Shown here: positions 9,952-49,900 of the stretch, one piece after another | How the letters are laid out: every line of letters begins with the position of its first letter | Position numbering within the stretch: position 1 is the first letter of the stretch | NCBI RefSeq assembly: GCF_004010195.1 | Contig: NC_057755.1 | Location: 8,011,466 to 8,075,465, forward strand | Origin: Chiloscyllium plagiosum | Lineage: Eukaryota | Direction: 5' to 3' | Length of the DNA: 64,000 nucleotides | The notes under the pieces: model-generated | What the model was told of the DNA's origin: nothing | Seen by the model: the letters and a program-made list of their open reading frames with translations, nothing else | Databases searched by the model: none | Program-made: the position numbers and the translations under genes

Positions 9952-10779
9952 TTACGAGACCAGTTGTTGAACTGTATTCCTGAATTTTGGTCTGAACTTA
10001 GCCAGTGTTACTGCATAAAATAATGTGTTTGTACTGCAGCTGAAATCCCTCAGTAGGCATCCAATTTGTTGATAAGCACCAATAGGTCTTCCATTAATGA
10101 CGAAGTATAAGAAACTTGTACTGTAAAGTAACCACAGAAGTATGAAGCTGACGGATATGGTGAAGAGGGAAATCACTGTCTTCCTTCGGTTCTCCATCTC
10201 TGTATCTTTGTGACTCTCTCCGTTGCTGGGACACTAACATGTGTCTGACTGTCAGAGCGTTCATCAACAGAATTAACACGAATGGGATGAAAGGTGTCAA
10301 AATGTTCTCAAACCAGTTATATCCCTGCCACTTAGGATTAAGTAAAAAACTTAACTTTGTTTGGCAGCCCCATGGAATATTGTGAATTATCTGCCGAGGT
10401 TGAAACCGAAAATAGAAGGGAATGTTTACTGAACAGAACAGAATGCTAATTATCGCTAAAGTCAGAGCCAAAAATTTCTCTGTCCAATATTTTCTCTTCA
10501 GTTTCTGGCAGCAAATGACCACAAAACGATCAAAGGAGAAAGGGACAGTGAACCAGACGGAACAGTCTGTTGTTGCATGAATCAGAACAAAGACAGCACT
10601 GCACACAGGGGTGAGGTCCAGGAAATTCCTTGGGAAGTAATAATTATTGAGTTGTCACAGTATGACATTCACGAGAATGAACAGTAGATCGGAGATTGCC
10701 ATGGCCACCAGGCATCGTGTTGTGCAGTTAGAGAGGCCACACTTTCCACGTGCAAGAACCAAAATCACTACTGAATTAA
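9952..10779 (-). pseudogene. GPR139-like class A GPCR pseudogene, exon 2
   Basis: Acceptor ...TTACAG at 10780. Translation VNSVVILVLARGKCGLS...LVAMAISDLL...TDCSVWFTVPFSFDRFVVICC...LTPFIPFVLILLMNALTVRH...RRKTVISLFTIS...FSCSTNTLFY. In-frame TGA at 10657-10655 and a frameshift/deletion near 10200-10230. Confidence 0.85.
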
Positions 10780-20600: not shown

Positions 20601-21130
20601 TAAGCTTATAACTGGCGGATTGCTTTTTTCCATGTTATACAATTGTAGTGAGGTAACGCTGCAGTGGCCTGTCCAGAATTTAGACCTGAGCAGAGTTGTA
20701 TCAAAGACTGGCAGTTGCCCATGCAGCAAGTCTTCCTTCTTCATGCTACTGATGTTGTCCAAAGGAAGTGCAAGGGCTGATACATCTTTGCACGCAGGAG
20801 TTGCCAGAATGAGGTTGAAGACAAGATTAGAGTTGTGCTGGAAAAGCACAGCAGACCAGGCAGCATCCGAAGAGCAGGAAACTCGAAGTTTCGGGCAGGA
20901 CGCCTTCATGATGAATGAGCTTATTTCTGATGAAGGGCTCCTGCCTGAAGCATCGATTTTCCTACTCCTTAGATGGTGTCTGACCTGCTGTGCTTTTCCA
21001 GCAAACTCTAATCTTGACTCTGATCTCCAGCATCTGCAGTCCTCACTTTCATCTAGAACGAGTTTGAAGACAACATTGGATTGCCTTATGAACTCCCGCT
21101 CTGGATTTGTCCTCAGAGTTTGCTCCTAAA
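17655..21130 (-). mobile_element. Near full-length decayed RTE-clade (BovB-like) LINE
   Basis: Remnants: endonuclease region ~19600-20300; IVTLHKNK...NNYRGITLL; VASTFIRMTKRVW...CVLSTLLYSSET; C-terminal part at ~17700. The RT core appears internally deleted near 18650. Confidence 0.8.
20825..21054. mobile_element. Inverted pair of family A Penelope termini nested in the RTE 5' region
   Basis: Two inverted copies, each with a degraded hammerhead core; ~19-bp TSD AGAAYGAGKTTGAAGACAA (20806-20824 and 21055-21073). Confidence 0.8.
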
Positions 21131-28219: not shown

Positions 28220-28560
28220 GAGACAGGGCAGCATTCTGACAGCATCAAACATCACCAAGAGAGGGACAGCACAGGGTTAGATACAGAGTAAATCTCCCTC
28301 TCCACTGTCCCATCAAACACTCGCAGGGCAGTGACAGCACCTGGTTAGAGACAGAATAATTCTCCTCTGCACTGTCCCATCAAATATTCCCTGGATACTG
28401 AGAGCAGGGGGTTAGATGCAGATTATCTCTCCCTCTCCACTGTCCCATCGAACATTTGCAGGACAATGACAACACATGATTAGATACAGAGTAAACATGT
28501 CTCTACATTGAACCCAATAAACACTGCCAGTACAGGGACTACATGGGGATAGATACAAAG
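28220..28560. repeat. ~61-bp satellite-like tandem repeat
   Basis: Unit ~GGGACAGCACAGGGTTAGATACAGAGTAAATCTCCCTCTCCACTGTCCCATCAAACACTCCCA. Confidence 0.9.
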
Positions 28561-30230
28561 TGTTACCCCATCTTTAGTAGAGCTTTGATATTGGGAAATC
28601 CCAATAAATTTGGTCATTCCGTGTCACTGTGTCACTCTGTGAGCGAGAGTGTATATGCTTGTACCATCAGGGACTTGCATTATTGGGGCTAATATGACTT
28701 TAATCCATGACCGATTAAATATTCAACAATATTTTCCAATTCTTTGTCCACAAATTTCAGAAAGCCAATGTGATGGTGTAACGCAATTCCAGAACTGATT
28801 TTGAGAGATGATCCCCTCTTCTGTCGTGACAGAATTCCTGATCCACAACTGAATCCTTCTCTGCTCCTGCCTCAAGTTAACATTGTACCATTTAGTCTGC
28901 ATTGTCCGTCCTCATTCTAACATTCAAACACCATCGCTTTCCATCTCATCGTACTCCATCTGCAGGAGGCTGAGAGATTATCATACACAAACTGTGAGGG
29001 TTTTTTTTTAATCTGCAAAACCAGGAAGAAGCATTCAAAACGTGTCAGTCATCTTTGGTATGTTGGTGGCAGCTATTTCAAGTTAGCCCAGCGCTGCCAT
29101 TGACATTATAAATAGGGAGATGCAAGAAAGAGTGGGGATTGGGGAGTGCGTCTGTATCTGAGTGCAGGAAAGGTTCACCAGAGTAGGTGGACAGCAAGAG
29201 GTCACTGGGGAGGAAGGGAAATGACGCAAACACAGGGTTGTGCCCCTGGGATTCAAAAGGATTGGACGGAATGAAAGTTTTTAATACATTAATGGAAATT
29301 GTTGGTATAGATAGAGAGAAAATCTTCTTGCTGCTTCTGAGTCCATGATCAGAATCAACGTCCAAAACTCGAACAGTACTCTGAAACCGTTTCAAGATTA
29401 AAATGAAGGAACAAAGCCTCCCATTTCTTTGTGTGATATTGCATACAATATGTCTTACTCACTCACTCACTGATCATATTCAACCCCCGTCACCCCTCCC
29501 AGTCTTTCTGTATCCTTGCATTTTACTGTCCCACATCTGTTTGTGTTATCAGCAAACGAAAGACAGGATCCCATCATCTCAGACATTCATAGAGACTGTG
29601 TTTAGTAAACACTGTAGGTAACAGTGAATGATTCCCTCCCATCTGCTGCTGTATAGCTCGTGTCTGTCTCAGAGTCAGCTCTGAAACATCTAAAGGACTG
29701 TGCGTCTCTGGCTCTGTATCTGTGTCTGTAACTCTCTCGCTCTGCCTCTGCATACATCTTCCCCATTCCATCAATCACACTGAGGAAATTTCAAATCTGC
29801 TCAATTCGCTGTAACCCAATTTGAGATGTCACTGAGGACATGGAATGTATTTTATAAATGTCCATCCCTCATTTACCTTGTGGGTTTGCAGTGCCAGGCT
29901 GTGATTTGGTTAAGTCCAGGCAAGGCCTCTTCCCCCAAGGACATTGGGTGACCGTTTTGTTCTTTATAACAAATAGAAAGCCCTCAACTTCACATGTCTA
30001 TTTCACAGGAATTCTGTGCTTCATATTTATTGGCCAACAACAGTTTCTCTGTGAATGTTTTGCTGAGATGACGTCAAAAATCCTGAGGACCAATTTCATC
30101 CTCAGACACCTTCCCAAAGACAGTAAACAGCGTCTGCGTGTATCCTCTTCAAGTCTCTCTGTCTCTCCCGCATGCCATCACACTATTGTTCTCTCCCATT
30201 CTCTCTCTGTCTCTCTCTCTCCCTCTCTTT

Positions 30231-30285: not shown

Positions 30286-31049
30286 TCTCGGTTTGGTTCT
30301 TGTGTCTAAATGAACCGTGGCGACCTGAGGGAGAGGGTGAGATTAGGGAATTGAGCTCGATGGTCAGCGTTGATCATATTGACTGAAAGAGCATGCTCGA
30401 GGGGCCGAATGGACTACTCCTGCTCCTTTCTTCTATGTTTCTACGTGATGTCACTCCAGGATCACTGACAAGGCCCTCGTTGGATAGGAGAGAAAGTTGT
30501 GAGGACGACCAAAGAGGCTGGGGCCCGATGTGGCCAGCTTCACTGAGTGGGCAAGTCATTGGCAGACAGAATATAATTTGGAGAAATGTCCATGTGCAGC
30601 ACAGATTTCCAAACTAACTTAGTGACAGATTAAAATCCCCATTAGCTGCCCAGTCCACACTTCTAGACACAAGGATGTTTTGTCCCTGAGGGAGGGCCGG
30701 TTTCTGACTGGATATTATTACATTGCAACATGAAGGTACTGAATGTAACAGAGTTTGCTACATTCCATCATATTTTCTACTTTGCTGTCTGCGTTTTGTG
30801 AATTATATTGAAAACATTGGCAAGTGGAATATCATACATTGGAGCGTGATTTGCAACAAGACTAGAAAAAGCAGAATGTTTATGTTTAAAATGCTGAGAA
30901 ATTCTGAAATGCTATTGTCCACAGGTTTGGATGATCGTGTACATAAAGATCAGAAGCTTGACATGATGGTAATGCCAGCAGATAGGAGGACAAGTGATGC
31001 ATTGAACGTTCTTGTTAGGCGATTTCTTTAGGGACACGAGCTTAACACG

Positions 31050-31280
31050 ACAGGCAGTGAGTTACAAACTGGAATATAATCGAGGGGTTCAGTGTGGCTT
31101 ATATACAGAATGACAGGTACATAGGAGTGAGTTACAGGCTGGTATTTAATCGAAGGTTTGGCTGTGCATTATATGTTGAATACCAGACACCCAGAAGCGA
31201 GTTACAGACTGGAATCTAATTGAGGGGTTTGTGGTGCCTGATGTGTGAAAAAACAAATAACCGGGAGTGAGTCACAGTGT
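31050..31280. repeat. ~67-bp tandem repeat (also at 40850-41080 and 41400-41570)
   Basis: Recurring GGAGTGAGTTACAGACTGGAAT..AATCGAGGGGTT...TTTATATACAGAA. Confidence 0.8.
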
Positions 31281-31525
31281 CTAGAGACAAAGAGATGTAC
31301 AGCACAGAAACAGACCCTTTGGTCAACTTGTTCATGTCGACCAGATATCTTGACCTAATCTCATCCCATTTTCCAGCACTTAGCCCATGTCCCTCCAAAC
31401 CCTTCATTTCGTATACCCATCTAGATGCATTTTAAATATTGCAATTATACCAGCCTCCATCACTTCCGCAGGCAGCTCATTCCATACATGTATCACCCTG
31501 TGTTTGAAAAAAGTTGCCTCTTTGA
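31280..31525 (-). mobile_element. CR1 3'-end fragment
   Basis: Similar to the 3' UTR fragment at 11890-12110. Confidence 0.65.
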
Positions 31526-31691
31526 TATTTTTCCACAATGTGGAAATATAATGTGGAGAAATGTCTATGTGCAGCACAGATTTCCAAACTAACGCATTGA
31601 CAGAATAAAATCCCCAATCCTTGCCGAGTCCACAACTCCAGACCCAGGAAGGCTTTTACCCTGAGGGATTGAGGGCAGGTTTCTTACTGGA

Positions 31692-32454
31692 TGTGAGAAA
31701 CAAAGCTCACACACTTCAATAATTGCAGTCCGAGACAAAATCTGAATCAGTAGTGTCCTTTATTTTTACACTTGCAAGTGGGTGTGATGTCCAGTGCCAA
31801 GCAAGGCAGAGGACATACACACCAAATTCAACAAACTCTCGATATTTATATAATTTGGATCTTACATTTTTTTTTTCTTATTTCATTGTTTCCCCCCCTG
31901 TTTACATCCTTCACTTCCCCAAGACTGGTCCCACCACTTCTGCTTATCTCTTGTCTTATCCGGCCTTATCTGTGACGAAATGCTTTTTTCTGGCCTCACA
32001 AGGCCGTTTGACCTCATCCCGCTGCAGGTCATTATTAGGCATATTCTTTCTTCATCAGTATCTACTCTTTCCATCTGGGTTTCTCCCGAAGCCACTCTGA
32101 TCCCTATGACCTCTTTAATTAGGGTTTGTTCCTGTGTCTCTGTAAAAGTGGGAAACAGATGTTCATGCCTACTATTTGTACAGGCATATCTGGCCTAACT
32201 TCATCCCCTCACAACATCTTATCTATTTGCCCATAATATCTACCATTGTTTTGCAATCACGTTTCATGCTGGCATACAATTTTAGCTGATACAAAAACAA
32301 TTATATATTTCCTCTACATAGTTTCCATTCTTGTTGACTCAGCTCCCGGCCGAAACAACCACACACTGATGTGAGTTCATTTACTTTGTATCAGAAATTA
32401 TAATTGCAGAATTGCAGAACTGCAGAAGTAACATTAATTTACCTTTATCCCACA
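31692..32454 (-). repeat. ERV 3' LTR (763 bp)
   Basis: TG...CA ends with imperfect inverted termini; minus-strand TATATAAA at ~31845-31852 and AATAAA at ~31759-31764; about 97% identical to 39743-40502 by hand alignment. Confidence 0.97.
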
Positions 32455-32472
32455 ATTTCCCCTTTTTCTTTT
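32455..32472 (-). promoter_or_regulatory. Polypurine tract
   Basis: AAAAGAAAAAGGGGAAAT immediately before the 3' LTR. Confidence 0.92.
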
Positions 32473-32505
32473 GTTATCATTTGTTATCTTCTGCATTTTT
32501 TTCTT

Positions 32506-34218
32506 TTAAACATCGTCCCCGAAATTCGCTTGCATCATTCCGGAGATTTCATCCATCTTGGTCTCACTCATCTCCTCATCATTTAGTCGATAAAGTTCCT
32601 CTGTCTGATTCCCTTTTTGGGGCATCTGTTTCATCAAGGCTGTTTCAATCAGTCTTTGGGTGAGCCCTCGTATACAGGGTATGATACAACAGCCAATGGC
32701 CACCAATACCCCAACTACTACCATCAGGGAAGTAAGGATAGAAACCACCACCCCTTCCATTTTCCAAACCATGATTCAAGCCATCCCGTGAGAGATGTGT
32801 CTACTCCTGAATTCTCAGCCAGTTCCTCTGCTAAGGTAGTCTATCCCCTCAAGGTCCGACTAATTGAACCATCAGGTGCAGTGTTATTAGGAATAAAGGT
32901 ACAACAGCTTCCTCCTAACATCACACACACACACCCTTTTTCTGCTAAAATCATATCAAGGGCAATTCTGTTTTCCCATGCCATCCTACTTGTCGCATCA
33001 AGCTGTTCTGATATTCCTTTAACCGCATCTCTTGTATAATTTATAAATCGCTGTTGATTACAGAAAATGTAATTTATCCAATCTACATTTTTATTAACTG
33101 TGACCCACCAAAAGGGAGCTGACTCATAGCCTGCTGCAATCTGATTACGAGCCTTGAACTCATCAGGTACATGCCTAGGGACTCCTACAGAATCGAGATA
33201 AATCCTGTCATCGAATGAAGTGNNNNNNNNNNNNNNNNNNNNNNNNNNNNNNNNNNNNNNNNNNNNNNNNNNNNNNNNNNNNNNNNNNNNNNNNNNNNNN
33301 NNNNNNNNNNNNNNNNNNNNNNNNNNNNNNNNNNNNNNNNNNNNNNNNNNNNNNNNNNNNNNNNNNNNNNNNNNNNNNNNNNNNNNNNNNNNNNNNNNNN
33401 NNNNNNNNNNNNNNNNNNNNNNNNNNNNNNNNNNNNNNNNNNNNNNNNNNNNNNNNNNNNNNNNNNNNNNNNNNNNNNNNNNNNNNNNNNNNNNNNNNNN
33501 NNNNNNNNNNNNNNNNNNNNNNNNNNNNNNNNNNNNNNNNNNNNNNNNNNNNNNNNNNNNNNNNNNNNNNNNNNNNNNNNNNNNNNNNNNNNNNNNNNNN
33601 NNNNNNNNNNNNNNNNNNNNNNNNNNNNNNNNNNNNNNNNNNNNNNNNNNNNNNNNNNNNNNNNNNNNNNNNNNNNNNNNNNNNNNNNNNNNNNNNNNNN
33701 NNNNNNNNNNNNNNNNNNNNNNNNNNNNNNNNNNNNNNNNNNNNNNNNNNNNNNNNNNNNNNNNNTAATTCGAAAACAACAGCCCAAGAAATCCCTCCCA
33801 TTTGCTTTCATTTTGATCCCAAATGTTTCATTTAATTATATCTCATAGGTGCCCCCCCCCCCAGAATTGCTTCGTGCCATGTGGTTTTCCTTATTGTTAG
33901 GTATATTGGGTTACACTTTTTATCGAAACAATCACGAGCTGGTCGGAAGGGGGCCCGGTGTACTGTGACGGGACCATTATACCAAGTACCATCCCCGAGG
34001 CCATCCCCATAGGACTTAAGATGTATCTCAGAGCTGCGGTACTGTCTCTGATTATCTACATCCCCGCAATTCACTAAACTGCATGCATTAGTGTCTATCA
34101 CTTGTAGATTATCAGACTCAGGAACTGTTAATAATACATATGAAAATAATATTTGACGAAATCCCAATACTAAGAGGGCTAGCATCATAACTCTAAGCAT
34201 TCCCAGTATTCTAAACAT
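32506..34218 (-). pseudogene. env: ERV env (gamma-type), frameshifted and partly in an assembly gap
   Basis: Hydrophobic signal-like N-terminus; ISD-like ENRIALDMILAEKG; CX6CC (CVMLGGSCC); membrane anchor GVVVSILTSLMVVVGVLVAIGCC; frameshifts near 33855 and 32843. Confidence 0.92.
33223..33765. other. Assembly gap (543 N)
   Basis: Run of N. Confidence 1.
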
Positions 34219-34299
34219 AATGCTGAAGCACAAAAAGACTTAATATACAATCTTACAGAAATAATCCCGTGCTCGCGTCGCCACTGTATAATCAGTTAC

Positions 34300-37200
34300 T
34301 CAAAGTCTCTTTAGTCTGAGTTTCAGCGGGTCTTGTGTTGATTCGGCTGTCCAGACTTCTTCCTCAACTGGAGGGTCCACAGGCCCTTTGATCCGAGTGT
34401 AGTGAGTCCAACCTTTCTTCGCCGTCCTTATTGCCGTTTCGGTAGTCAAAAGAGCCTGATACGGCCCTTCCCAGTCCGGCTGCAATTTAGTCTCTGTCCA
34501 TGATTTTACTAAGATCCAATCGCCCAGCCGGATGGGGTGAACGGTGATTCAAGGGGTGGAGTCTGTGCCAATAAACCCTGTTTCCTGAGGAAAGATAAAG
34601 AGGAGGACAAGCCCAATATATAATTCTTTAAAAACAAATCTTTAGTTTCGGGAATTGGCAATTCTCCATTCGTTCCCAGATAAGGTAATCCAAATAAAAT
34701 TTCATAGGGGGATAGTCCCAAATCTTTCCTTGGGGCTGTTCGTACCCGCAAGAGAGCTATAGGTAAACATTTGGTCCAAGGGAGTCTGGTTTTTATTATC
34801 AATTTAGAGATCTGTCGTTTGAGTGTTTGGTTCATTCTCTCAACCCTTCCCGATGATGGTGGGTGCCACGGAGTATGGAACTCCCAGGAAATTCACAACC
34901 CCTTCATTACCCCCTGTAACAGGTAAAATGGGTTCCTTGGTCGGAATCTATACGGTTCACTAGCCCATATCGGGGAAATATGTGCTCCAATGTTGTTTTA
35001 GACACCCCACTCGCAGTGGCGGTAGCTAGGTGGTATGCCTCAACTCAACCAGATAGATGATCTACTATGACAATCATATATTTTAGTCTTCCTACTCTGG
35101 GTAGTTCAGTATAATTTACTTGTATACTCTGGAAGGGTCTCAATCCTGCGTTTCTTCCTCCCGGGGTCTGTTTTCTCAAGACTTTTTTATTTACTTTTCT
35201 GCATATTATACATCCCTCACATATTTGTTTAGCAATTGTATATATTCCTTTACATCCATATTCCCTAAGAACTAAATCACACATTGCTTGTACTCCCCAA
35301 TGACTGCCTTGGTGTAGGACAGCCATAATCTCTCACATCATCATTTTGTTTAACATTTCCCTTCCATCAGCTAACCTCCAATGCCCGTCTGGTGTTTTTG
35401 CAGCCCCTAAATCTCTCAATTCTTTTTCTTCTCTTTCAGTAAATTATAGGAGCTTCCCTAGGATCTGGGACAGTAGGTATTAGGGAATGAATCACTACTG
35501 CTTGTGGGTTCAGGGCGGCCTCCCTAGCCACTTCATCGGCTAATCTATTTCCCCTAACTTCTGGTTCATTTCCTTTCTGATGACCATTTACGTGCACTAT
35601 GGCTATCTCTCGGGGGAGTAATAGGGATTCCAAGACTCGTTTAATCAATTCTTCGTGAACTAATTCCTTCCCCCGCCAATGATCAGTCCTCTTTCCTGCC
35701 ATATCTTTCCGAAAGTGTGCACAACACCAAATGCATATTTAGAGTCAGTGTATACTGTTCCCTCTTTATTTTCTAATGCCCTAAGGGCTCTTTCCAATGC
35801 ATACAGTTCGCAGGTCTGAGCTGACCACCCATTTGGCAGCCTTCCTGCCTCCACCACACTACCTTTTGTCCCATTTACGACTGCATACCCATTATGTCTT
35901 TTCCCTTCAGTCACCCGGGATGATCCATCTATAAAAAGTCTAGCCCCTGCTTGGAGCAGAACATCTCTCAGGTCCATGCGGACCTTAGTTTGGTATTCTA
36001 TAATGTCAAGGCAGTCGTGCCTGGATTCTGAGGAGAGTCTCCTTCCCCTTTCCAAAGAAAGGCAGCTGGATTTAAACAATTATCAGTGACCAACACTAGA
36101 TCATCTTTTTCTATTAATATCGCCTCATATTTCAGAATCCACGAGTCTGTCAACCATCGCCCAGCTTTTTGGTTTAGGATCGTTCTCACTTGGTGTGGGC
36201 TGCTTACTATTAGGGCTCCCCCAAATGTCAGCTTTCTGCTTTCCTGCACCAACAGTGCAGTGGCAGCCACAGCCTGCACACACTCAGGCCATCCCCGGGA
36301 TACTGAATCCAATAGCTTCGAAGGATATGCTACTGGCTGTCTCATCCCTCCCCACCTCTTAGTTAATACTCCCAAAGCCGCTCCCTTATCTACGGTAGCA
36401 AAGAGGTGGAAAGGTTTATCTAGGGAAGGTAAGGCTAAGACGGGGGCATGAATCAGATCTCTTTTGAGTTTCTCAACTAGTTCTTTTTCCTCATCATCCC
36501 AATTTAGACATTTTGGCTCCCCCTCTAATAGTTTGAGATATAATTTCCTAGTCTTCTGAGCATAGGAATCTATCCACAATCTGCAATATCCCATTAGACC
36601 CAAAAATTTGCGTAACTCCCGTTTAGTGCTGGGCAGTGGCATCCCCACTATTCCCTCTATCCGTTCTGGGCTTATCTTTCGATTGCCCTCACACACTAAA
36701 TGTCCCAAGTATTTTACTTCTTGCTCCACATATTGTAATTTGTTTCTAGATACTCGCAGTCCTTGCTGACCCAGGAAATTCAATAATTTGTTAGTGGCTT
36801 CTACTATTTCTCTTCTTTTTCCTGTTACTAAGACATCGTCTACGTACTGCAACAGGGTAGTCCCCTTGGGGTTGCTAAATTTCTCCAATATTTGTTCTAA
36901 CATCTGTCCAAATAAATTCGGGGATTCCGTAAACCCCTGGGGGAGCACAGTCCACCGGTATTGCTGTTTCTGTCCTGTCTTAGTGTCTTCCCATTCAAAA
37001 GCGAACAAGTTCCTACTTTCCTCCACCAAGGGACAAGCCCAAAAGGCATCCTTTAAATCTATTGCACTAAACCATTTGTGGTCATGAGGGATCTTACTTA
37101 ATAACGTATAGGGGTTTGGCACCACTGGGTGTCTGATCTGTACTATTCGATTTAATGTTCTCAAATCCTGCACCAATCGATAAGTTCCATCAGATTTCCG

Positions 37201-37806
37201 CACTGGCAGAATTGGGGTATTATAAGGAGACATACATGGCTCCAACAGACCATCTCTAATCAGTCCTTCAATTACTGGCTGCAGTCCTCGTTAACCTTCT
37301 ATGGAAATAGAATATTGTCGCTCACAGACAACATTCCCTTTCCGTTTTAAATTTATTAGAAGGGGAGGGATCTGTAGTTTTCCACGATTCCCTTCTCTAG
37401 CCCATACAATAGGGTCTATCTCTCTCGCCACATCCTCTGTCAACTTTGCCATTTGTACAACTAATTATTTTTCCTGAATTCCAATCTCCAGTCCTAAGAG
37501 GATAATTAAGTCTCTCCCTAGTAAGTTACTTCCTATATCAAGGATATACATCAGTTCCCCTATGACCCTATCCTTCGGACCTTCTATCATCATAGGTTTA
37601 AATACTGGAACAGTAAATCCTTCCCCTTTTACCCCCGAAACAGTAATTGACCGTGTCGACATTTCTACTTTCTTTGGTTTAAAATTCAACGATGACCGTG
37701 CTGCCCCCGTATCTACTAGGAAGACTACCTCTTCCATATAGGGTCCCACCTTCAGGTTTATCAAGGGTTCCTGGTTGGCCCCCGAGGGCAGGAACCCCTG
37801 ACACCC
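34300..37806 (-). pseudogene. pol: ERV pro-pol (protease, RT, RNase H, integrase), disrupted
   Basis: LVDTGA and LLGRD; DLKDAF, LPQGF, YVDD; FIDGSS, AQTCEL, YTDSKY; integrase H-H-C-C, DSDQG and ERMNQTLK; WEGPY C-terminal motif. Multiple stops and frameshifts; the first integrase Asp reads N. Confidence 0.96.
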
Positions 37807-37809
37807 CTA
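37758..37809 (-). promoter_or_regulatory. gag amber stop with readthrough stem signal
   Basis: TAG (37809-37807) GGGTGTCA GGGGTTCCTG...CAGGAACCC; pro is in frame with gag. Confidence 0.85.
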
Positions 37810-39428
37810 TTCTTCATCAAAATTCATAAGCGGAATTGCCCTTTCTTCCCTTTGTAGATCAGGACACTCCCGCTTAAAATGTCCTATCTTCCCACAATAA
37901 TACATCCTGCCTGTGAAGACCTCCATCTCTGCCCCTGTCTCTCGAACCCTCTATCAAATGCTCCCCCTTGTCCTCTCCCTCTCCCTCTTCCTCTCTGTCT
38001 TACATGCTGCCACCCGCCACTCCGGTTGCTCACTATTGGTTCATTTCTTTTCTTTACTACCGCATTAACCGGAGCTACCATCATTTTCACCTTCTGTTTT
38101 TGTCTCTCATCCTCCCTCTTTACAAACACTTTCTGTGGCTCTCTTAACAATTCATCTAATGGTTTTTCACTCCACTCTTCTAGCTTCTGTATCTTTCTCT
38201 GTAGGTCTGCCCATGCCTTTGTCACAAAATGTACTTTCAAAAGACCCTGTGCCACTGGGTCCTCAGGGTTCATTCCAGAATATTTCCGCATTGAGTCCCT
38301 TAATCTTTGCAAGAAAGCTCAGGGAGTCTCATCTTTCTCCTGTCTAACTTCAAACGCTTTAGTCAAATTCTGTGACTTCGGCACTGCCTTTCTTATTCCT
38401 TTTAGAACCAGGTCTTTCAATTCCCTCATTTCTTCTCTATGCTCCGGGTTTTGGTTTTCCCACTGGGGGTCTCTGAGGGGAAACTTCACCTCTCCCTGTC
38501 CAGCATCCCCATCTCCAATCGGGTGTTCTCTGTCCCATATTTTAATGGCGGCTCCTCGTATAAGTCCCCTTTCTTCCCCAGTAAATAGTACATTCAAAAT
38601 AGACATTAACTCAGCCCAGGTATACAGACTTGGCCCCAAAAATTGATCAATTTGTTCAGACAACCCCACCGGATCCTCAACTAGGACCTTCATTTCCTTT
38701 TTAAATGTTCTGACCTCCCCACTGGTGAGGGGGGCATTTACAAACACAATCTCTTTGTCCCCTATTGGTACTTCCCGAAAGGGATAGGTAGTTACGTTCT
38801 TCCCCTTTTTCTTAGGTTTACCCCCCTTAGGCTTTGATTTAGATCCTCCGAAGGCCTCCTCTACATCTACTGTAGCTTCCCTTTCTTTTGCTGAGGATTG
38901 AGGGTCAGGAACAACAACATCCCCGTCCACCGCCCCCTCATCCTCCTCTTGTGAATCCGTTCTCTGTCCCTGTCTGGCTGTCTGTCTCTCCTCCTCCCCC
39001 ATGTTCATCTAACCTGATTTCATGGTACGGGGGGGCAAACAGCCAAGAGGATCCCAGGGACTAGGTGGGGCAGAGGGGGAATCCATTGTCTTTACTACCA
39101 TCATTCCCAAACTGCCCTTCCAACAGGGCGCATAGTCCGCCTCCTCTTGACTAAAAGGTTGTTTTTTATTCACATACAAATCTAAATACTGACATACCCA
39201 ATCCTCGTCCGAACCATACTTTGGCCAGAAGACAGCCGGACGAAGGATTGGGTCTTTGGTCTATACTAAACAACAATATTTAATCATTTTCTTTTTATCT
39301 TTTGCTCTTGTAAAAGTATTACTTGTCCATTCCTGCAACATCCTCCCCAACGGACTTTGCAAAGGAATGTTACCAGGGACTTTTTCTTCTTCCTTTACTC
39401 CGTGACTGTTACTCTGCTTACCCCCCAT
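37807..39428 (-). pseudogene. gag: ERV gag, disrupted
   Basis: Myristoylation-type start MGGKQS; PSAP late motif; MHR-like VRQEKDETP*AFLQRLRD; single CCHC knuckle C-x2-CGKIGHFKREC broken by a 1-bp deletion near 37900. Confidence 0.93.
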
Positions 39429-39723
39429 TTCCCGGGGCCCTCGCTTGTCCCTCAGCGAGTAAATACCCCTTTTCCCGGCCACCAAGGCAATACTTAAAAG
39501 TCAGGTTTCTTACCTTGGTCTGAGCACAGATTTGCCTGGCCCTTATCGTCGTATGTTCTATCGAGCTCCTATCACTGTCTGATTCAGATGTCTCTCTTGT
39601 GGGATCCGTACCAGTCGCCCAAGGGATCGGACCAAACCAGAACACGAGACCGCTCCTCAATGGGGAACGGGACGCGTCTTCCCAGTGTCCAAGGCCAGCC
39701 ACTCCCCCCGGCGATGGAAGAAA

Positions 39724-39740
39724 ATCCCGGACAGCCCCCA
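39724..39740 (-). promoter_or_regulatory. Primer-binding site, tRNA-Pro-like
   Basis: TGGGGGCTGTCCGGGAT, 2 nt after the 5' LTR; equals the MLV Pro PBS TGGGGGCTCGTCCGGGAT minus one C. Confidence 0.9.
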
Positions 39741-39742
39741 AT

Positions 39743-40502
39743 TGTGAGAAACAAAGCTCACACACTTCAATAATTGCAGTCCGAGACAAAATCTGAATCA
39801 GTAGTGTCCTTTATTTTTACACTTGCAAGTGGGTATGATGTCCAGTGCCAAGCAAGGCAGAGGACATACACACCAAATTCAACAAACTCTCGAGATAAAA
39901 ACAATTTGGTTCTTACATTTTTTTTCTTATTTCATTGTTTCCCCCCCTGTTTACATCCTCCACTTCCCTAAGACTGGTCCCACCACTCCTGTTTATCTCT
40001 TGTCTTATCCGGCCTTGTCTGTGACGAAATGCTTTTTTCTGGCCTCACAAGGCCGTTTGACCTCATCCCGCTGCAGGTCATTGTTAGGCATATTCTTTCT
40101 TCATCAGTATCTACTCTTTCCATCTGCGTTTCTCCCGAAGCCACTCTGATACCTATGACCTCTTTAATTAGGGTTTGTTCCTGTGTCTCTGTAAAAGTGG
40201 GAAACAGATGTTCATACCTACTATTTGTACAGGCGTATCTGGCCTAACTTCATCCCCTCACAACATCTTATCTATTTGCCCATAATATCTACCATTGTTT
40301 TGCAATCACGTTTCATGCTGGCATACAATTTTAGCTGATACAAAAACAATTATATATTTCCTCCACACAGTTTCCATTCTTGTTGACTCAGCTCCCGGCC
40401 GAAACAACCACACACTGATGTGAGTTCATTTACTTTGTATCAGAAATTATAATTGCAGAATTGCAGAACTGCAGAAGTAACATTAATTTCCTATATCCCA
40501 CA
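39743..40502 (-). repeat. ERV 5' LTR (760 bp)
   Basis: Direct repeat of 31692-32454, followed on the minus strand by the PBS. Confidence 0.97.
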
Positions 40503-41084
40503 CTGGATATGATTCCATTGCAACATGAAGCTGCTGAGTGTTACAGAATTTGCTACACCCCATCATATCATCTACTTTGCTGTCTGTCTTTTGTGAATTA
40601 TATTTAAGACATTGGCACGGGAATAGAATATAGTGAAGCGTGATTTGCAGGAAGAATAGAAAAAGCACAATGTTTGTGTTTAAAATGGTGAGAAATTCTG
40701 AAACGTTATTGATCGGGGGTTTGGCTGAACTTGTTCATAAACATCAGAAAGTTGACATAATAGTAGTTCCAGCAGACAGGAGGACACGACATACACTCAC
40801 CATTCTTGCTGGCAGCTTTTGTCCGGCAATGAGTTTAACACGACATGGATTGACGTACATACTGGAATATAATCGCGCAGTTCGGGGTGGTTTACATGCG
40901 AAATTACAGATACACAGGAGTGAGTTACTGATTGGTAACTAATGGAGGGGTCCGTGGTGATTTATATACAGATTAACAGGTACCCAGGAGTGAGTTATAG
41001 ACTAGAAACTTATTGAGGGGTTCGTGCTGGTTTATATACAGAAGAACAGACATCCAGGAGTGAGTTACAGACTAGAATTTTGTT

Positions 41085-41381
41085 TTTAGATGAGATTAGA
41101 TTACATACAGTGTGGAAGGGCCCTTCGGCCCAACAAGTCCACACCGCCCCGCCGAAGCGCAACCCACCCATAACACAACGGGCAATTTAACCTGGCCAAT
41201 TCACCTGACCTGCACACCTTTGGACTGTGGGAGGAAACCGGAGCACCCGGAGGAAACCCACGCAGACATGGGGAGAACGTGCAAACTCCACACAGTCAGT
41301 CGCCTGAGGCGGGAATTGAACTCGGGTCTCTGGCGCTGTGAGGCAGCAGCGCTAACCACTGGGCCACCGTGCCGCCCACAA
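41085..41381 (-). mobile_element. HE1-like SINE (internally deleted)
   Basis: Reverse complement of the 21135-21446 family, with A/B boxes. Confidence 0.85.
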
Positions 41382-43105
41382 ATCTTGTCCAAGGTTTGAG
41401 GTGGTTACTGTCCAGAGTTCCTTATAAATGAACGTCAGTTACGGATTGGAATTTTATCAAGGGGATCGGGATGATTTTATGCAGAATAGCAGATACCCAG
41501 GCGTGAGCTACAGACTACAATCAGGTTGAGGGGATTGTGCGATTTATATACAGAGCAATTGGATACGAAAGGGCAGAAAAGAAGGAGACATTACCCACCA
41601 TGGACCAAGTCAAAAATGAGCTGAGCCACACAGGATTCAAATACTGTATGTGAAGTTTTCCATCTGTTCTGACACTTAGCCAGGAGGTTAACCATTGCCC
41701 AATATTTAGGAGAATTCATAATATGTTCTCAGATTTTACCAGGGATTGAAGTAATATCGCGAGGAAAAGGTTATTCTAAGTTTATTATCAGATTATTGTA
41801 AGGCCACACTGAGTAATTAAAATTGATCTGCGATAAATTTGTTTTGCTGAAACAGTTCCAAATCTTTTCTCACCCATTTAAGTGTTGAAGTGATGAACTA
41901 TATTACTTTCCTGACTCCCCACTGTCCTACATCTAAGACGATCCTCCTCTGTTTTTCACGTTTACTGGAGAGATTAATATCCTTTTATAATGTATCGCCA
42001 TACTGGTTAGAATGCCGCCTTTCTCACACTGTCTCATTTACATTCAATCCTTTTTAAAGACATTGAAACCAACAGACACGCAAAGTTCCAAAAAGATGCA
42101 GGTGCATTATTTTCTTTTATTTGTGGACAACGCACAATTTGAACCCAGAGCAATCAGTGTGGGATTGGAGAAACCCTGGATTTTGGGATGGGGCCTAGCC
42201 ACATAGGATTCTGATCCAAAGCTGCAAATATACAATTCAGTGGCTGAGCTGTTCAGGTTTTGTATATTTGAGTCTCCCAGATATTTGGAGCTTGCCAAGT
42301 AAGTCAGACGTTGCTGGGAAGTGAAATTTGTCTCTCCGCATTCACTTCAAACAGATTCTGCAATTGGCAATTTAGTCACCATCAAGGAGCTGTCTCCATT
42401 TCCTACATCTGCTAGGATCTATGAATGGAAACAGCTTTTGACACATTGCCCCCTCGCCCTTGCAGAAACCTTTCCTGACTCAAGTGAGTCAGGCAGGTAT
42501 CTTAGATTTGTCCACAGCCACCATTTCTTATTAGCACAGCACTGCCATTGATTTTATAAATAGGGAAATGCAAGAGTGACTGGCAAAATCTATGCAGTTT
42601 GAGATAATTGAACATTTGTCCCCAAGTAACAGTTAAAATTCTCTGACCTTACCATAAATTAGAAAGTGAGAATGACAGACTATGTGAATAGGCAAAATTG
42701 TGTGGGGTTAGGAATTGATGAAATCACCCATCCCGCTGATTCTGTCCCCATCAAACACACTCAGGGCAGCTCCATTAATGTCCCTCCACACGTTCTCCAT
42801 TTGAATCTTTCAAAGTCTGGGGAGAATGTGGTGAGATACAAAGTAAATCTCGCTCTCCACTGTCTCCTCGAACACTCCAAGGACAGTGACAGCATGGGGT
42901 TTAGATGCAGAGTAAATCTACCTGTCCACTGTCCCATCAAACACTCCCATGATAGGGACAGCACGGGGCTTAGGTACAGAGTAAATCTGCCTCTCCACTG
43001 TCCCATCAAACACGACCAGGAGAGGGACAGCAGAGTTTGAGATACAGATTAAAGATGCCTCTACACTAAACACAACAAACACTTCCAGGAAAGGGACAGC
43101 CACAG

Positions 43106-43978
43106 GTGTTCAAAGTTTGTGAGAAGATTTGTATCTCGGGTGGTCATTGTTGTGGTTCTGTTCGCCAAGCTGGGAATTTGTGTTGCAGACGTTTCGTCCC
43201 CTGTCTAGGTGACATCCTCAGTGCTTGGGAGCCTCCTGTGAAGCGCTTCTGTGATCTTTCGTCCGCCATTTGTAGTGGTTTTAATCTGCCACTTCCGGTT
43301 GTCAGTTGCAGCTGTCCGTTGCAGTGGTCGGTATATTGGGTCCAGGTCGATGTGCTTATTGATTAAATCTGTGGATGAGTGCCATGCCTCTAGCAATTCC
43401 CTGGCTGTTCTCTGTTTGGCTTGTCCTATAATAGTAGTGTTTTGCCAGTCGAATTCATGTTGCTTGTCATCTGCGTGTGTGGCTACTAAGGATAGCTGGT
43501 CGTGTCGTTTTGTGGCTAGTTGGTGTTCATGGATGCGGATCGTTAGCTGTCTTCCTGTTTGTCCTATGTAGTGTTTTGTGCAGTCCTTGCATGGGATTCT
43601 GTACACTACATTGATTTTGCTTATGCTAGGTATCGGGTCCTTCGTTCTGGTTAGTTGTTGTCTGAGAGTGGCTGTTGGTTTGTGTACTTTTATGAATCCT
43701 AGTGGTCGAAGTAATCTGGCTGTCAGTTCGGAAATGTTCTTGATGTATGGTAATGTGGTTAGTCCTTTGGGTTGCGGCATATCCTCGTTCTGTTGTCTGT
43801 CCCTTAGGCATCTGTTGATGAAATTGCACGGGTATCCGATTTTGGCAAATACATTGTATAGGTGTTCTTCTTCCTCTTTTTGCAGTTCTACTGTGCTGCA
43901 GTGTGTTGTGGCCCTTTTGAATAGTGTCTTGATGCAACTTCTTTTGTGTGTGTTGGGGTGGTTGCTTTCGTAGTTCAC
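43106..43978 (-). mobile_element. 5'-truncated Penelope-like retroelement (family C) with an open RT-thumb/GIY-YIG frame
   Basis: HPNTHKRSCIKTLFKRA...LPYIK...VVYRIPCKDCTKHYIGQTGRQLTIRIHEH...RELLEAWHS; stop at 43205. Confidence 0.92.
43185..43224 (-). ncRNA. Minimal hammerhead ribozyme motif (family C)
   Basis: GCA-CUGAGGA-U-GUCACCU(AGAC)AGGGGAC-GAAA-CGUC-UGC: helix I GCA/UGC, palindromic ACGU helix III, GUC triplet. Confidence 0.8.
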
Positions 43979-45774
43979 AACACTTATTTCCCTCAACACT
44001 AAACACAATAAACAGTGCCAGGACAAGATCAGCATGGGGTTAGATCCAGAGTAAATTTCCCTCTGCACTGTTCCCCCATCAAACACTCCCAGGGCAATGA
44101 CGACATATGATGAGATACAGAGTAATTCTCCCTGTCGACTGTCCCATCAAACACTCCAAGGACTGCGACAGCACGGAGTTAGACACATGGTTAGATACAG
44201 AACACATCTCCGTCTACAATATCTCATCAAACACTCTCAGGACTATTACAACACAGGGTTAGATATAAGTAAATCTCCCTCTCCAGTCTCCCATCAAACA
44301 ACACCAGGAGAGGGACTGCACAGGGTTAGATACACAGTAAACCTTCCTCTACACTCCCAGCACAGGGACAGCACAGCGTTAGATGCAAGGTAGATCTCCC
44401 TCTCCACTGCGTCATCAAACACCCCCGGGACAGGGATAGTGCGGGTTAGATACAGAGTAAATCTCCCTCTCCACTGACCCATCAAATACTCCCAGAACAG
44501 TGACAGCACAGGGGTAGATACAGAGTAAGTCTCCCTCTGCACTGTCTCATCAAACGCCACCTGGACACGGATAGCTCAGTGTTATATACAGAGTTAGGAT
44601 CCCTCAACACTAAATCCAACAAATAGTGCTAGGACAAGGTCAGCATGGGGTTAGGTAGGGAGTAAACTTCCCTCTACCATGTTCCCCATTAAACACTCCC
44701 AGGGCAATGACAACACATGATTAGATGCAGAGTAAATTTTTATCTTCACTGCCCCATTAAATACTCCCAGGACAGTGACAATATGGGGTCTGATACAAAG
44801 ATAAGCTCTCGCTCCACTGTCCATCAAAGACACCCAGAGCAGGGACAGGACGGGGTTAGATTCAGAGTAAATATGATTCTACACTAAACCCAACAAACAT
44901 TCCCAGTAAAGGGATGGCACAGGGTAAGATACAGAGTAAATATCGCTCTCCTCTGCCCGAGCAAACACTCCCAGTACAGTGACAGTGCAGGATTAGATAC
45001 AGACTAATCTTTGACAGGGACAGCATGGGGGTCAGACACTCATTAAATCTCTCTCTCCATTGTCCCATCAAACACTCCCAGGACAGTGACAGCACGGAAT
45101 TTAGATACAGAGTAAATCGCCCGCTACATTGCTCCCCATGAAACACTCCCAGCCAGGGACAGCATAGGGTTAAATACAGAATAAATCTCACTCTACAGTA
45201 TTCCCCAATCAAACACTCCCAGGATACAGGGTTAAATACAGAGTGAAGCTCATTCTGCACTGTTCCCCCATCAAAACACCCAGGACAGTTTAGGTTCAAA
45301 GGGGTTTTTCTTTGGGAGATCCTCATCCACTGAGATAGTGCCATCAACCCCAAAGTGAGATTGATAGACTGGGTGAATGGGCAGAACTGTGTTCGATGGT
45401 GTTCAGTGCAATCATATGACTTACATTCTGAGGGGACATTGGACAAACAAGTGCTGGTTTGCTTTCGAATTGATAAGGTTAAGCAGTGATCTGATTGATA
45501 TTTTCAAGATATGAAAAAGACAAGACAGGGTAGATCAAGATCAATAATTCCCACTTGTTGGAGATTCTAGAACAGAGGGAGCAAAGTCTTAGAATAAAGA
45601 CCCAGAGCGTTCAAGAGAGATGTTAGGAAGCACGTTGGCTCACAAAGGGAGGGAGAGGTTTGGAACTGTTTTTCACAAAAACCAGTGGATGTCTGATCAG
45701 TTGTTTAGATTAAACCCTACACTGTTTGCATCAACACTCTCAAGACAAGGACTGTGTGGGGGTTTGATAAAACC

Positions 45775-46138: not shown

Positions 46139-47981
46139 GTGGTAAATCTACCTTTACTGTTCTGCATCAAACACTTCCAGGGAAGGGACAGCACGGAGTT
46201 GCACACAGTGTAAAGCGCCCTGTACACTATCCCCATCATTCCCTCCCTCGTCAGCTAAAGCATTGAGTTTGATACGGAGTAAAACTCCCTCGATGATATC
46301 ACAATCAAAAAATTTAATGCCATGTATAATCTGAAGAGAGATGCTGATTGAAACTCACTCCTGACTCTCCCCATTCTTACACACATGCACACAGAGACAC
46401 CCACACACACACAGACAACAAAATTGGAAGAACTCCACAAATTCATCACCAAATGCTTTGTTTGATTCTCTCTGCTCTGATTCCCTGTTAGATTGATGGT
46501 TTTGAACATTCACATGGACAAGCGTCCTAATCCCATGTGCCATGTCCTACTCCCAAACACAGCATCTGATTCCAATCCAGAGTGTGATCGCGGAGCCTCT
46601 CAGTGTCGGAGATTTGTGAGTCTTGAGCCTTACCCCGGTGTGTGAATGCCCTGTGTTCATCTGACATCGAGCAATTATTTCATGGAGTTGTAATGTTTGC
46701 AAACTCAATAACTTTGGTCATTCAATGTCCCAATGTAACAGTGTGAGCAAAAGTGTGTGAACGTGTGCGACCAGCGCATTGCATTAATGGGTCAAATATG
46801 AGTTTTCTCCCGCAACTATTAAATATTCAACAACATTTTCCAGATCCTTGTACACAAACCACAGAAAGCCAATGTGATGTTACTCAATTTCAGAAGTGCT
46901 CTTGGGACATGTTCCCCTCTCCTGTGCTGACAGAATTCCTGATCCATAACTGAATCCTTCTCTGTTCCTGACCCTCAGGTTAACGTTGTAGCATATAACC
47001 TGCATTGTACATCCTCAGTTTGACATCCAAACACCATCATTTCCCATCTCACTGTATTCCATCTGCAGGATGCTGAGAGATGACCACACACAAACTGTGA
47101 GGAGCTGTTTTAATCTGGAAAACCAGGAGGAAAGATTCCGAAGGTGTCAGCCATCTTAGGTATGTTGGTGCAGCCATTTCATGTTAGCCCAACACTGACA
47201 TTATCTTTATACACAGGGAGAAGCAAGAAAGAATGGGAACATGGGGAGTGTGTGTGTATCTGAGTGCAGTACAGATTCACCAGAATGATAGCCCTACAGC
47301 AAAGGGTCACTGGGAGGGAGGGAAATGACCCAAACCCAGGATTGTACCTTGGAATTTAGAAGGATTGAATGGATTGAAAGTTTTTGAGACAACAAGGTAA
47401 ACGGCTGAGTTAGGTAGAGAGAAATGCTTCTTGCTGCTTCTGGGTCGAGGATTAAAATCAACGTCTAAAACTCTAACAATGCTCTGAAATTGTTTCAAAA
47501 TGAAAATGAATTTACAAAGCCTCCCAAATTCTCTGTGTGATATTGCACAGACTGTCTTACTCACTCACTCTCTGAACATATCCAAACCCCTTCCCCCTTC
47601 CCAGCCTTTCTGTATCCTCCTTGCATTTTACTATCCCACATCCGTTTGTGTTGTTAGCAAACGGAACACAGGATTCCATCATCTCAGTTATTCATAGAGA
47701 CTGTGTCCAGTGCATTGTCGGCAGTTTCAGGCTGTGATTGGGTTAAATCCAGGCCTCTTGCCCCAGGTAACTATTCGGTGACCGTTTTGACAAAGAGAAA
47801 GGCCTCAGCCCTCAAATGCCTGTTTTACAGAAATTATGTGCTTCACACTAATTGGCCAACCACAGTAAGGAAGTTTCTCTGAGTGTTTTACTGTGATGAC
47901 ATCAGCAATCCAGTGTAACACTTTCATCCTCAGACACCTTCCCAACGACAGTAAACAGCGACTGCTTGTATCCTCCTCGGT

Positions 47982-48409: not shown

Positions 48410-49900
48410 GCTCACTGGACAATGTCCCACCAAATACTCCAAGGACAGATAGGGTTAGATACAGAGTAAATCTCCCTTTCCAATGTCCCCTCAAAAAATT
48501 CCCAGGACAGCGAGAGCACAGTGTTAGATTCAGAATAAAGATGCTTCAACGTTAAACCCAATGAACACTCCCAGGAAAGGGACAGCATAGGGTTAGACAC
48601 AGAGTTAAGGTACCTTTACTCTGTCCCATCAAACACTACTAGGGCAGCGACAGCACAGGGTGAGATACAGAGTAAGTCTCCCTCTGAACTGCCCAATCAA
48701 ACACTTCCAAGACAGTGATAGTTCGGGTTAGATACCGAGTAAACCTCACTCTACACTGTCCAATAAAACTGTCCCAGGACAGTGACAGCACGTGGTTAGA
48801 TACGGAGTAATTCTCCCTCACCACTGCCCTATCAAACACTCCCAGGACAGTGACAACACAGGGCTAGATACAGAGTACTTCTCCTTCTCCACTGTCCCAT
48901 CAAATATTCCCAGCACAGAGACAGCACTGGGTTACACACGCGGCTAGATACAGAATACGTCTTCCTCTACACTGTCTCATCAAACACTCCCAGGACTGTT
49001 GCAGCACGGGTGTTAGATACAGAGTAAATGTCCCTCTCCCTGTTTCATCAAACACCACCAGGACAGGGATAGCACAAGGTTAGATACCGAGTAAACCTCA
49101 CTCTCCACAGTCAAATCAAACCCTCCCAGGACAGGGACAGCGCAGCATTAGATACAGAGTAAATCTCCCTCTCCACTGTGACATCTAACACCCCCAGGCC
49201 AATGATACCTCATGGTTAGATACAGAATAATTGTCCCTCTCCCTGTCTCATCAACCACCACCAGGAGAAGGACAACACGGGTTTAGATACACATTAAACC
49301 TTACTCTTCACTGTAAAATCAACCCCTCCCAGGACAGGGACAGCACAGCATTAGATACAGCGTCAACCTCACTCTTCACTCTCATATCAAACACTCCCAG
49401 GACTGTGATAGCACAGGGTTAGGTAAAGAGTAAATCTCCCTCTCGACTGTCTCATCAAACGTTCCCACTACCGTAACAGCACGAGGTTAGATACGCGGTT
49501 AGATACAGAATAAGTCTTCCTGTACATTGTCTCATCAAACGCTCCCAGAACTGTTCAATACAGAATAACTGTCCCTCTCCACTCTCTTATTAAACACCAC
49601 CAGGAGAGGGACAGCATAGCGTTAGATACAGAGAAAACCTCACTCAACGCTGTCCCATCAAACACACCCAGGACGGGGACTGTGTGGGTTTTGATAAAGT
49701 GTAAAACGCCCTCTCCACTGTCCCATGAAACACCACCTGGACAGGGACAGCACAGGGTTAGATACAGAGTGAGGATCCCTCGACACTGAATCCAACAAAC
49801 ACTGCCAGGACATGATCAGCATGGCGTTAGACACAGAATAAATCTCCTACTATACTTTTCTCCCATCAAGTACACACAGGATTGGAACTGCACGGGTCTA
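48410..49900. repeat. ~61-bp satellite array
   Basis: About two dozen diverged units of GGTTAGATACAGAGTAAATCTCCCTC.... Confidence 0.92.

Follow-up and report, generated by a model that had tools for sequence, protein, structure and literature searches.

The closest described relatives of the endogenous retrovirus (ERV) considered here, a provirus in a 64,000-nucleotide stretch of contig NC_057755.1 of the shark Chiloscyllium plagiosum (hereafter the window), are in the human HERVIPADP group. This group comprises HERVIP (HERVIP10F) and HERVADP (HERVP71A) and has been linked to the avian ChiRV1 and the ERVPb1 envelope (PMC4724089; Repbase names follow PMC5753468). HERVIP is marked by a proline-type primer-binding site (PBS), one zinc finger, a GPY/F motif and an A content above 31%; its PBS is of the Pro or Ile type, and that of HERVADP of the Phe/His type (Vargiu et al. 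2016, PMC4724089). The supplement of that paper gives PABL a different immunosuppressive motif and an Arg PBS. The simian envelope EnvP(b)1 (structure 6W5Y) is a conserved open gene, and McCarthy et al. 2020 (PMC7683403) reported that relatives of it were not found in fish genomes. The clade containing the gammaretroviruses has been described as amniote-only (Xu et al. 2018).

Among cartilaginous fishes, SnRV-like and epsilon-like ERVs are known from the elephant shark (Han 2015, PMC4422223), a description repeated by Naville and Volff (PMC4977317). Han 2015 also cites a lemon-shark ERV that is close to a human ERV and is thought to stem from cross-transmission. Like the present provirus, it resides in a shark, is related to a human ERV and has been proposed to have arisen by transfer between species. 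Blanco-Melo et al. (PMC11089739) listed 2018 clade I reverse transcriptase (RT) loci in six chondrichthyan genomes. Chen et al. 2021 (bioRxiv 10.1101/2021.11.23.469661) found ERVs with a gamma-type Env in six cartilaginous fishes and 46 orthologous ERV groups in Chiloscyllium, and named gamma-related lineages in Chiloscyllium and a skate. Compared by description, ERV-GA.a-Cpu and ERV-GA.a-Ara resemble the provirus in being full-length and gamma-related, with a simple structure, a gamma-type Env and cartilaginous hosts; the main text of Chen et al. 2021 draws no link to HERV-IP and contains no occurrence of "HERV". Its supplements may already contain the family of the provirus. No full-length shark element characterized as HERV-IP-like was found in the open-access literature, subscription papers, Dfam and Repbase lying outside the search. 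A comparison by sequence with an index of other DNA stretches likewise returned no look-alike. The lemon-shark element, attributed to Herniou in 1998, is reportedly a short PCR fragment, comparable with the provirus family by description only, and Martin in 1997 is said to have dealt with HERV-I-related viruses.

The provirus in the window is best explained, with a probability of roughly 0.88, as a member of the HERV-IP/HERV-ADP lineage, a simple class I (gamma-related) retrovirus that integrated once in the shark germ line and has undergone neutral decay since. The original prediction had presented it as a complete, structurally intact and possibly undescribed shark-type class I provirus.

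Layout, insertion and decay

The provirus entered the host genome by an integrase-type insertion and retains the full retroviral gene order. Both long terminal repeats (LTRs) have TG...CA ends. The alignment of its two flanks to a paralogous empty site in the host sequence gave 120 of 147 and 445 of 578 identical columns. The 5-bp target-site duplication can be regarded as real because the flanks overlap by exactly five bases on this unoccupied unit (30708-30712), where the 5-mer occurs once. A 4-bp duplication was ruled out, since the same 5-mer stands on both sides and the overlap on the empty paralog is 5 nt. The host sequence around the site is an old tandem duplication of ~975 bp (30570-31691 and 40503-41076); one unit received the insertion, and the other has remained a natural empty site.

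The first 8 nt of the PBS agree with a published PBS-Pro consensus (PMC10602909) and with one HERVIP PBS. An ungapped search with the 18-mer PBS-Pro returned no matches, and the 64-kb window contains no tRNA genes. The leader and intergenic intervals measure only 313, 81 and 54 nt, and on this basis a separate large accessory gene was ruled out, as the original prediction had anticipated.

Matches to Pfam were obtained for 9 of 13 fragments. Those above the cut-off were Gag_p30, RVP, RVT_1, RT_RNaseH_2, RNase_H, Integrase_H2C2 and MLVIN_C, TLV_coat fell below it, and neither dUTPase nor G-patch was matched in any of the 13. The pro-pol region is colinear with protein P0002 across 1159 of 1163 residues. 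The YVDD motif of RT and the CX6CC motif of Env can be read directly in the reading frames and, together with a gammaretroviral RT as the best match, bear out the earlier class I assignment. The predicted gag-pol readthrough is likewise supported. A UAG codon terminates gag, which shares its frame with pro, and a match to Rfam GP_knot1 starts at this codon, at an E-value of 0.034 and 21.6 bits against a gathering value of 67.7 (351 nt searched). The fold of this stretch has a z-score of -2.18, with 4 of 200 shuffles as good; the second stem of the pseudoknot was not seen. Judging from gammaretrovirus biology, the progenitor would have primed reverse transcription with tRNA-Pro, produced Gag-Pol by readthrough of the UAG and made Env from a spliced RNA. 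Its entry into cells would have been mediated by an Env with disulfide-linked surface (SU) and transmembrane (TM) subunits.

Every gene of the provirus is broken, with at least nine in-frame stops and at least eight frame changes in total. In gag, stops lie near 39263, 39011 and 38321, and the frame changes near 37900, within the single zinc knuckle. In pro-pol, stops lie near 37467, 37293, 35335, 35047 and 34895, and frame changes near 36020, 35680, 35440, 34920 and 34550; frameshift-aware alignment to two independent homologs gave these same five stops and five frame changes. In env, frame changes near 33860 and 32760 and a stop near 32843 represent a minimum, as the middle of the gene is hidden by an assembly gap, in which 543 N stand where the closest Env homolog has ~711 nt. 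As read from its sequence, this copy is unable to make Gag, Pol or Env; it is complete in layout and dead in coding. The layout in the original prediction (LTRs, target-site duplication, PBS, polypurine tract and four genes) stands, whereas the claim of intactness is contradicted by the stops, the frame changes and the N gap.

The two LTRs are identical at 740 of 760 aligned sites (97%). The substitutions between them comprise 12 transitions and 8 transversions, to which two indel events are added, and the Kimura two-parameter divergence is 0.0268. Five of the 20 substitutions fall within 9 nt (31843-31851, with the corresponding stretch in the 5' LTR). The probability of such clustering by chance is 0.0004, and the cluster coincides with the TATA-like motif that is found in the 3' LTR only. 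These five differences are probably the result of one complex event. The LTR divergence gives an age of 61 million years (My) with the rate that Han 2015 adopted for sharks, or 48 My if the five clustered differences count as one event, and 13 My at a rate of 1e-9; such ages are trustworthy to the order of magnitude only. The decay is considered neutral because eight frame changes were observed and the divergence of the LTR pair predicts 8.3. The copy may also be poorly transcribed, because its 5' LTR lacks a TATA-like motif.

The damage could alternatively reflect errors of a gappy assembly in a provirus that is in fact intact or recently active. The N gap inside env, one env frame change located at a long C run and a number of stops above expectation would fit this view. 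It is nevertheless very unlikely, as the LTRs have diverged by 20 substitutions in 760 sites and by two indel events, the nine stops are substitutions spread across 6 kb, and the count of frame changes agrees with the neutral expectation. In addition, Wang and Han 2023 record invading ERVs in 0 of 13 cartilaginous fishes.

Placement by reverse transcriptase and envelope

In sequence comparisons, the RT is closest to gammaretroviral RT, indicating a class I, gamma-related element. Among solved structures, the best matches have an E-value of ~1e-109 and come from chains that we take to be of the XMRV/MLV type; what is presumably foamy virus Pol follows at 1e-35, and others are weaker. Among the matches listed for the stop-free RT frame, unnamed proteins reach 75-78% identity, Scyliorhinus torazame 73%, Crotalus 67%, Pantherophis 65% and passerines 55-65%. 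Named teleosts were absent from the best 120 of 521 matches and from the best 120 of 727.

The main RT tree contains 46 rows chosen from 570 proteins. The same grouping appears in a survey tree, for which 271 matches were reduced to 109 rows. Of ten unnamed or unplaced rows that were checked, four proved to have names. The provirus belongs to a seven-row clade with catshark rows (support 99/96). This clade is nested in a clade of 23 rows (100/99) that includes Scyliorhinus, Hypanus, Crotalus, Pantherophis, Podarcis, passerines and P0558, the sole protein of the 570 to carry two HERVIP-specific motifs. The gammaretroviruses of cats, rodents and monkeys and PERV form a separate clade, and a stickleback element lies far outside. 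Over 300 residues, the RT of the provirus is 63-67% identical to those of snakes and 43-45% identical to those related to murine leukaemia virus (MLV); within the RT core, 114 of 152 residues (75%) are shared with a rattlesnake element. A hand count over the first 152 RT residues against consensuses as printed gave 118 identities with HERVIP (taxorder 10410) and 117 with HERVADP, while the same stretch gave 79/151 with PERV-B and 61/146 with the stickleback element. The capsid and protease, judged by eye, resemble the printed HERVADP consensus equally plainly.

Membership of the genus Gammaretrovirus in the MLV-related sense was rejected, as the RT falls outside the MLV/PERV clade. The provirus shares with MLV-related viruses (PERV, feline, rodent) the p30 capsid, the UAG readthrough signal and the MLV-type integrase C-terminus, and apparently also the gamma-type Env and the Pro-type primer. 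It differs from them in the RT, with its low identity and separate clade, and in its target-site duplication of 5 bp, that of MLV being 4 bp.

The similarity to HERVIPADP extends over Gag, protease, RT and TM, all close to the printed consensuses, and over the in-frame arrangement of gag and pro. The immunosuppressive motif is that of the HERVIP consensus. Further markers of the HERVIP type are the single zinc knuckle (split by the frame change), the GPY/F-type end of the integrase and an A content of 31.5%. The differences lie in the shark host, an LTR of its own of 760 nt and an N-terminal SU that is only weakly alike. The comparison with HERV-I/IP that was originally suggested is therefore borne out by the 100/99 RT clade with a motif-identified HERVIP-type row and by the shared immunosuppressive motif.

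The Env was assessed by the criteria for gamma-type Env of Hogan and Johnson (PMC9967133). The motifs of TM, namely the immunosuppressive domain and CX6CC, are present in the provirus, while the N gap covers the positions of CXXC and of the furin cleavage site, both of which can be seen only in P0121, the closest full-length shark Env. This protein is 87-93% identical to the visible env parts of the provirus and was used as its stand-in in the Env tree. P0121 and human EnvP(b)1 share 47% identity over 627 columns, with CXXC, the furin site and CX6CC present; the start of the provirus SU resembles EnvP(b)1's receptor-binding domain weakly (16/42, 38%). The env of the provirus is broken, in contrast to the conserved open EnvP(b)1 gene. 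A search with the TM fragment matched 352 proteins, and the best 120 of them are headed by Chiloscyllium punctatum (93%), other sharks (82-87%) and goose and pheasant (82-83%), with bilby (78%), teleosts and frogs (~62-75%) and the primate EnvP(b)1 cluster with 6W5Y (73%) also among them. In the Env tree (49 rows; 50 chosen, one dropped for short overlap), shark, bird, bilby and primate rows stand apart from teleost and frog rows (90/97). The shark matches in the RT and Env searches agree with the predicted shark-type host.

The provirus belongs to a multi-copy family present across several shark genera. The named Chiloscyllium Env proteins fall in clusters of 12 and 33. P0121, P0128 and these clusters include several full-length open Chiloscyllium Envs of 606-656 residues, which form two related families. 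Sampled sequence words are shared by 14 sequencing runs from six studies and three organisms, at fractions of 0.24-0.41 and none reaching half, in keeping with a family common to related species; six further rows stay below 0.2 and carry no weight, and no RNA run was listed. A search of viral contigs gave four pattern matches, none of which was confirmed.

A different origin, as a fish-native epsilon-like ERV with a gamma-type Env of the kind seen in ZFERV or PABLB, corresponds to the original suggestion of a PABLB/ZFERV-type env. Many teleost and frog Envs do share the TM type, "PABLB member 1 Env-like" is the name attached to two relatives (P0122 and P0216), and the combination of epsilon-like Pol with gamma-type Env occurs in fish according to Chen et al. 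2021. The name is, however, an automatic database assignment, and both the immunosuppressive motif and the PBS of PABL differ from those of the provirus, so that PABL membership was rejected. An epsilon- or ZFERV-type Pol was rejected as well, since the RT did not group with the one named teleost row tested. Its identity to the stickleback Pol-Env protein is 35% over 300 residues, far from the value for snakes, and a clade uniting the provirus, shark rows and a teleost row was rejected by the approximately unbiased test (p-AU 2.8e-5, for one teleost row and with unnamed rows picked after the tree). The epsilon-like origin is consequently very improbable, and the earlier suggestion is not upheld. 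Nor is an undescribed lineage likely, given the lemon-shark ERV cited in Han 2015 and the gamma-related Chiloscyllium and skate lineages in Chen et al. 2021.

Several points weigh against placing the provirus as a neutrally decayed member of the HERV-IP/HERV-ADP lineage. Its Pro-like PBS is imperfect, the Phe/His PBS of HERVADP differs from it, and neither human group is matched in every marker. The trees contain no authenticated sequence of HERV-IP/ADP, ChiRV1, ZFERV or the lemon-shark element, and HERVIP is anchored there by a protein without a name that was selected for its motifs. The phylogenies that the original prediction had proposed yielded a HERV-IP-like grouping for RT, while for Env they place the provirus through P0121, both without curated references. 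The Env clade (90/97) is not starred, includes one long-branch salmon row and comes with long-branch warnings. Finally, nine stops were observed where 4.2 are expected from the LTR divergence (P 0.029); the age derived from the LTRs may therefore be an underestimate, or errors in the assembly may account for part of the damage.

Features of the window

The coordinates of the provirus and its parts are collected in Table 1.

Table 1. Provirus of the window and its component features (positions within the 64,000-nucleotide stretch)
Feature	Position	Strand	Remarks
Whole provirus	31692-40502	minus	~8.8 kb; order gag-pro-pol-env between two LTRs
5' LTR, 760 nt	39743-40502	minus	AATAAA at LTR position 688; without TATA-like motif
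3' LTR, 763 nt	31692-32454	minus	TATA-like motif at 603-605; AATAAA at 691
Target-site duplication copy by 5' LTR, 5 bp	40503-40507		
Target-site duplication copy by 3' LTR, 5 bp	31687-31691		
PBS, tRNA-Pro-like, imperfect	39723-39740	minus	2 nt from the 5' LTR, on its internal side
gag: Met-Gly start, p30-type capsid, one zinc knuckle	37807-39428	minus	broken
gag-pol UAG readthrough site and downstream stem	37744-37809	minus	Rfam GP_knot1, fold test
pro-pol: protease, RT (YVDD), RNase H, integrase with H2C2 and GPY-type C-terminal domain	34300-37806	minus	broken
env, gamma-type: HERVIP-type immunosuppressive motif, CX6CC	32506-34221	minus	broken, middle under N
Assembly gap, 543 N, over C-terminal SU and SU/TM junction	33223-33765		
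Polypurine tract	32455-32470	minus	adjoins 3' LTR
Older host paralog of insertion site, without provirus	30570-31285		

Outside the provirus, the minus strand holds an apparently broken fragment of a rhodopsin-family G protein-coupled receptor (10097-10654; 7tm_1, E 8e-11). A minus-strand frame of 313 residues at 43205-44146 has no Pfam match and resembles the end of a Penelope-like retroelement. Degraded pieces of another LTR element, integrase-like and presumably protease-like, occur at 57496-57753 and 58541-58999 (minus) with weak tblastn matches; no Pfam match was obtained for the protease-like reading. At 20439-21129, two open frames (228 and 186 residues) overlap on opposite strands, also without a Pfam match, and are possibly a host exon. 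Repeats comprise arrays of diverged ~68-70-bp units, at 28243-28561, 42813-45200 and 48452-49826 as well as at 31099-31285 and 40892-41521, and a 1-kb segment at 28602-29601 that recurs at 46706-47706 with 80% identity.

Host transfer and significance

The provirus is a new example of a known HERV-I/IP-like class I lineage, and its closest named non-shark kin are found in snakes, birds and primates, not in bony fish. The 23-row RT clade has as its successive sisters a row without a name and an element from a gecko, and the whole lies within an amniote-rich gamma-related diversity (99/97, 98/92, 97/90). A land-to-sea host jump, in which an amniote-type retrovirus passed into sharks, is probable, this direction being favoured because of the position of these sisters. 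The reverse course, in which an undescribed deep shark lineage was ancestral to the amniote HERV-IP-like viruses through sea-to-land transfer or co-divergence, is unlikely. The occurrence of relatives in a ray as well as in several genera of sharks is compatible with it, as are at least three elasmobranch branches at the base of the 23-row clade, which is unresolved. The identity of the sisters speaks against it, however, and the RT-core identity to the rattlesnake element would be too high for more than 400 My of co-divergence. The cross-transmission origin that Han 2015 (PMC4422223) cites for the lemon-shark element also points away from a deep shark lineage.

A broader form of the land-to-sea jump can be put forward tentatively, at somewhat less than even odds. 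According to it, a HERV-IP-related virus crossed from sauropsids to the sea, possibly repeatedly, and radiated among several genera of sharks and in a ray, where multi-copy families remain whose Envs are homologous over their full length to EnvP(b)1, a co-opted primate fusogen. If true, it would contradict the amniote-only status of the gammaretrovirus-containing clade (Xu et al. 2018) and the absence of EnvP(b)1 relatives from fish stated by McCarthy et al. 2020, with both of which the present data, at the level of protein sequences, disagree. In that case, some of the open shark Envs of 606-656 residues could be co-opted genes.

The locus itself is dead and gives no sign of function. Its value lies in documenting, at full length and with a date, a gamma-related lineage common to sharks, snakes, birds and primates. 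The finding bears on how frequently retroviruses moved from land to sea or back and adds sharks to the hosts in which relatives of EnvP(b)1 are known; in both respects it refines known themes without starting a new one.

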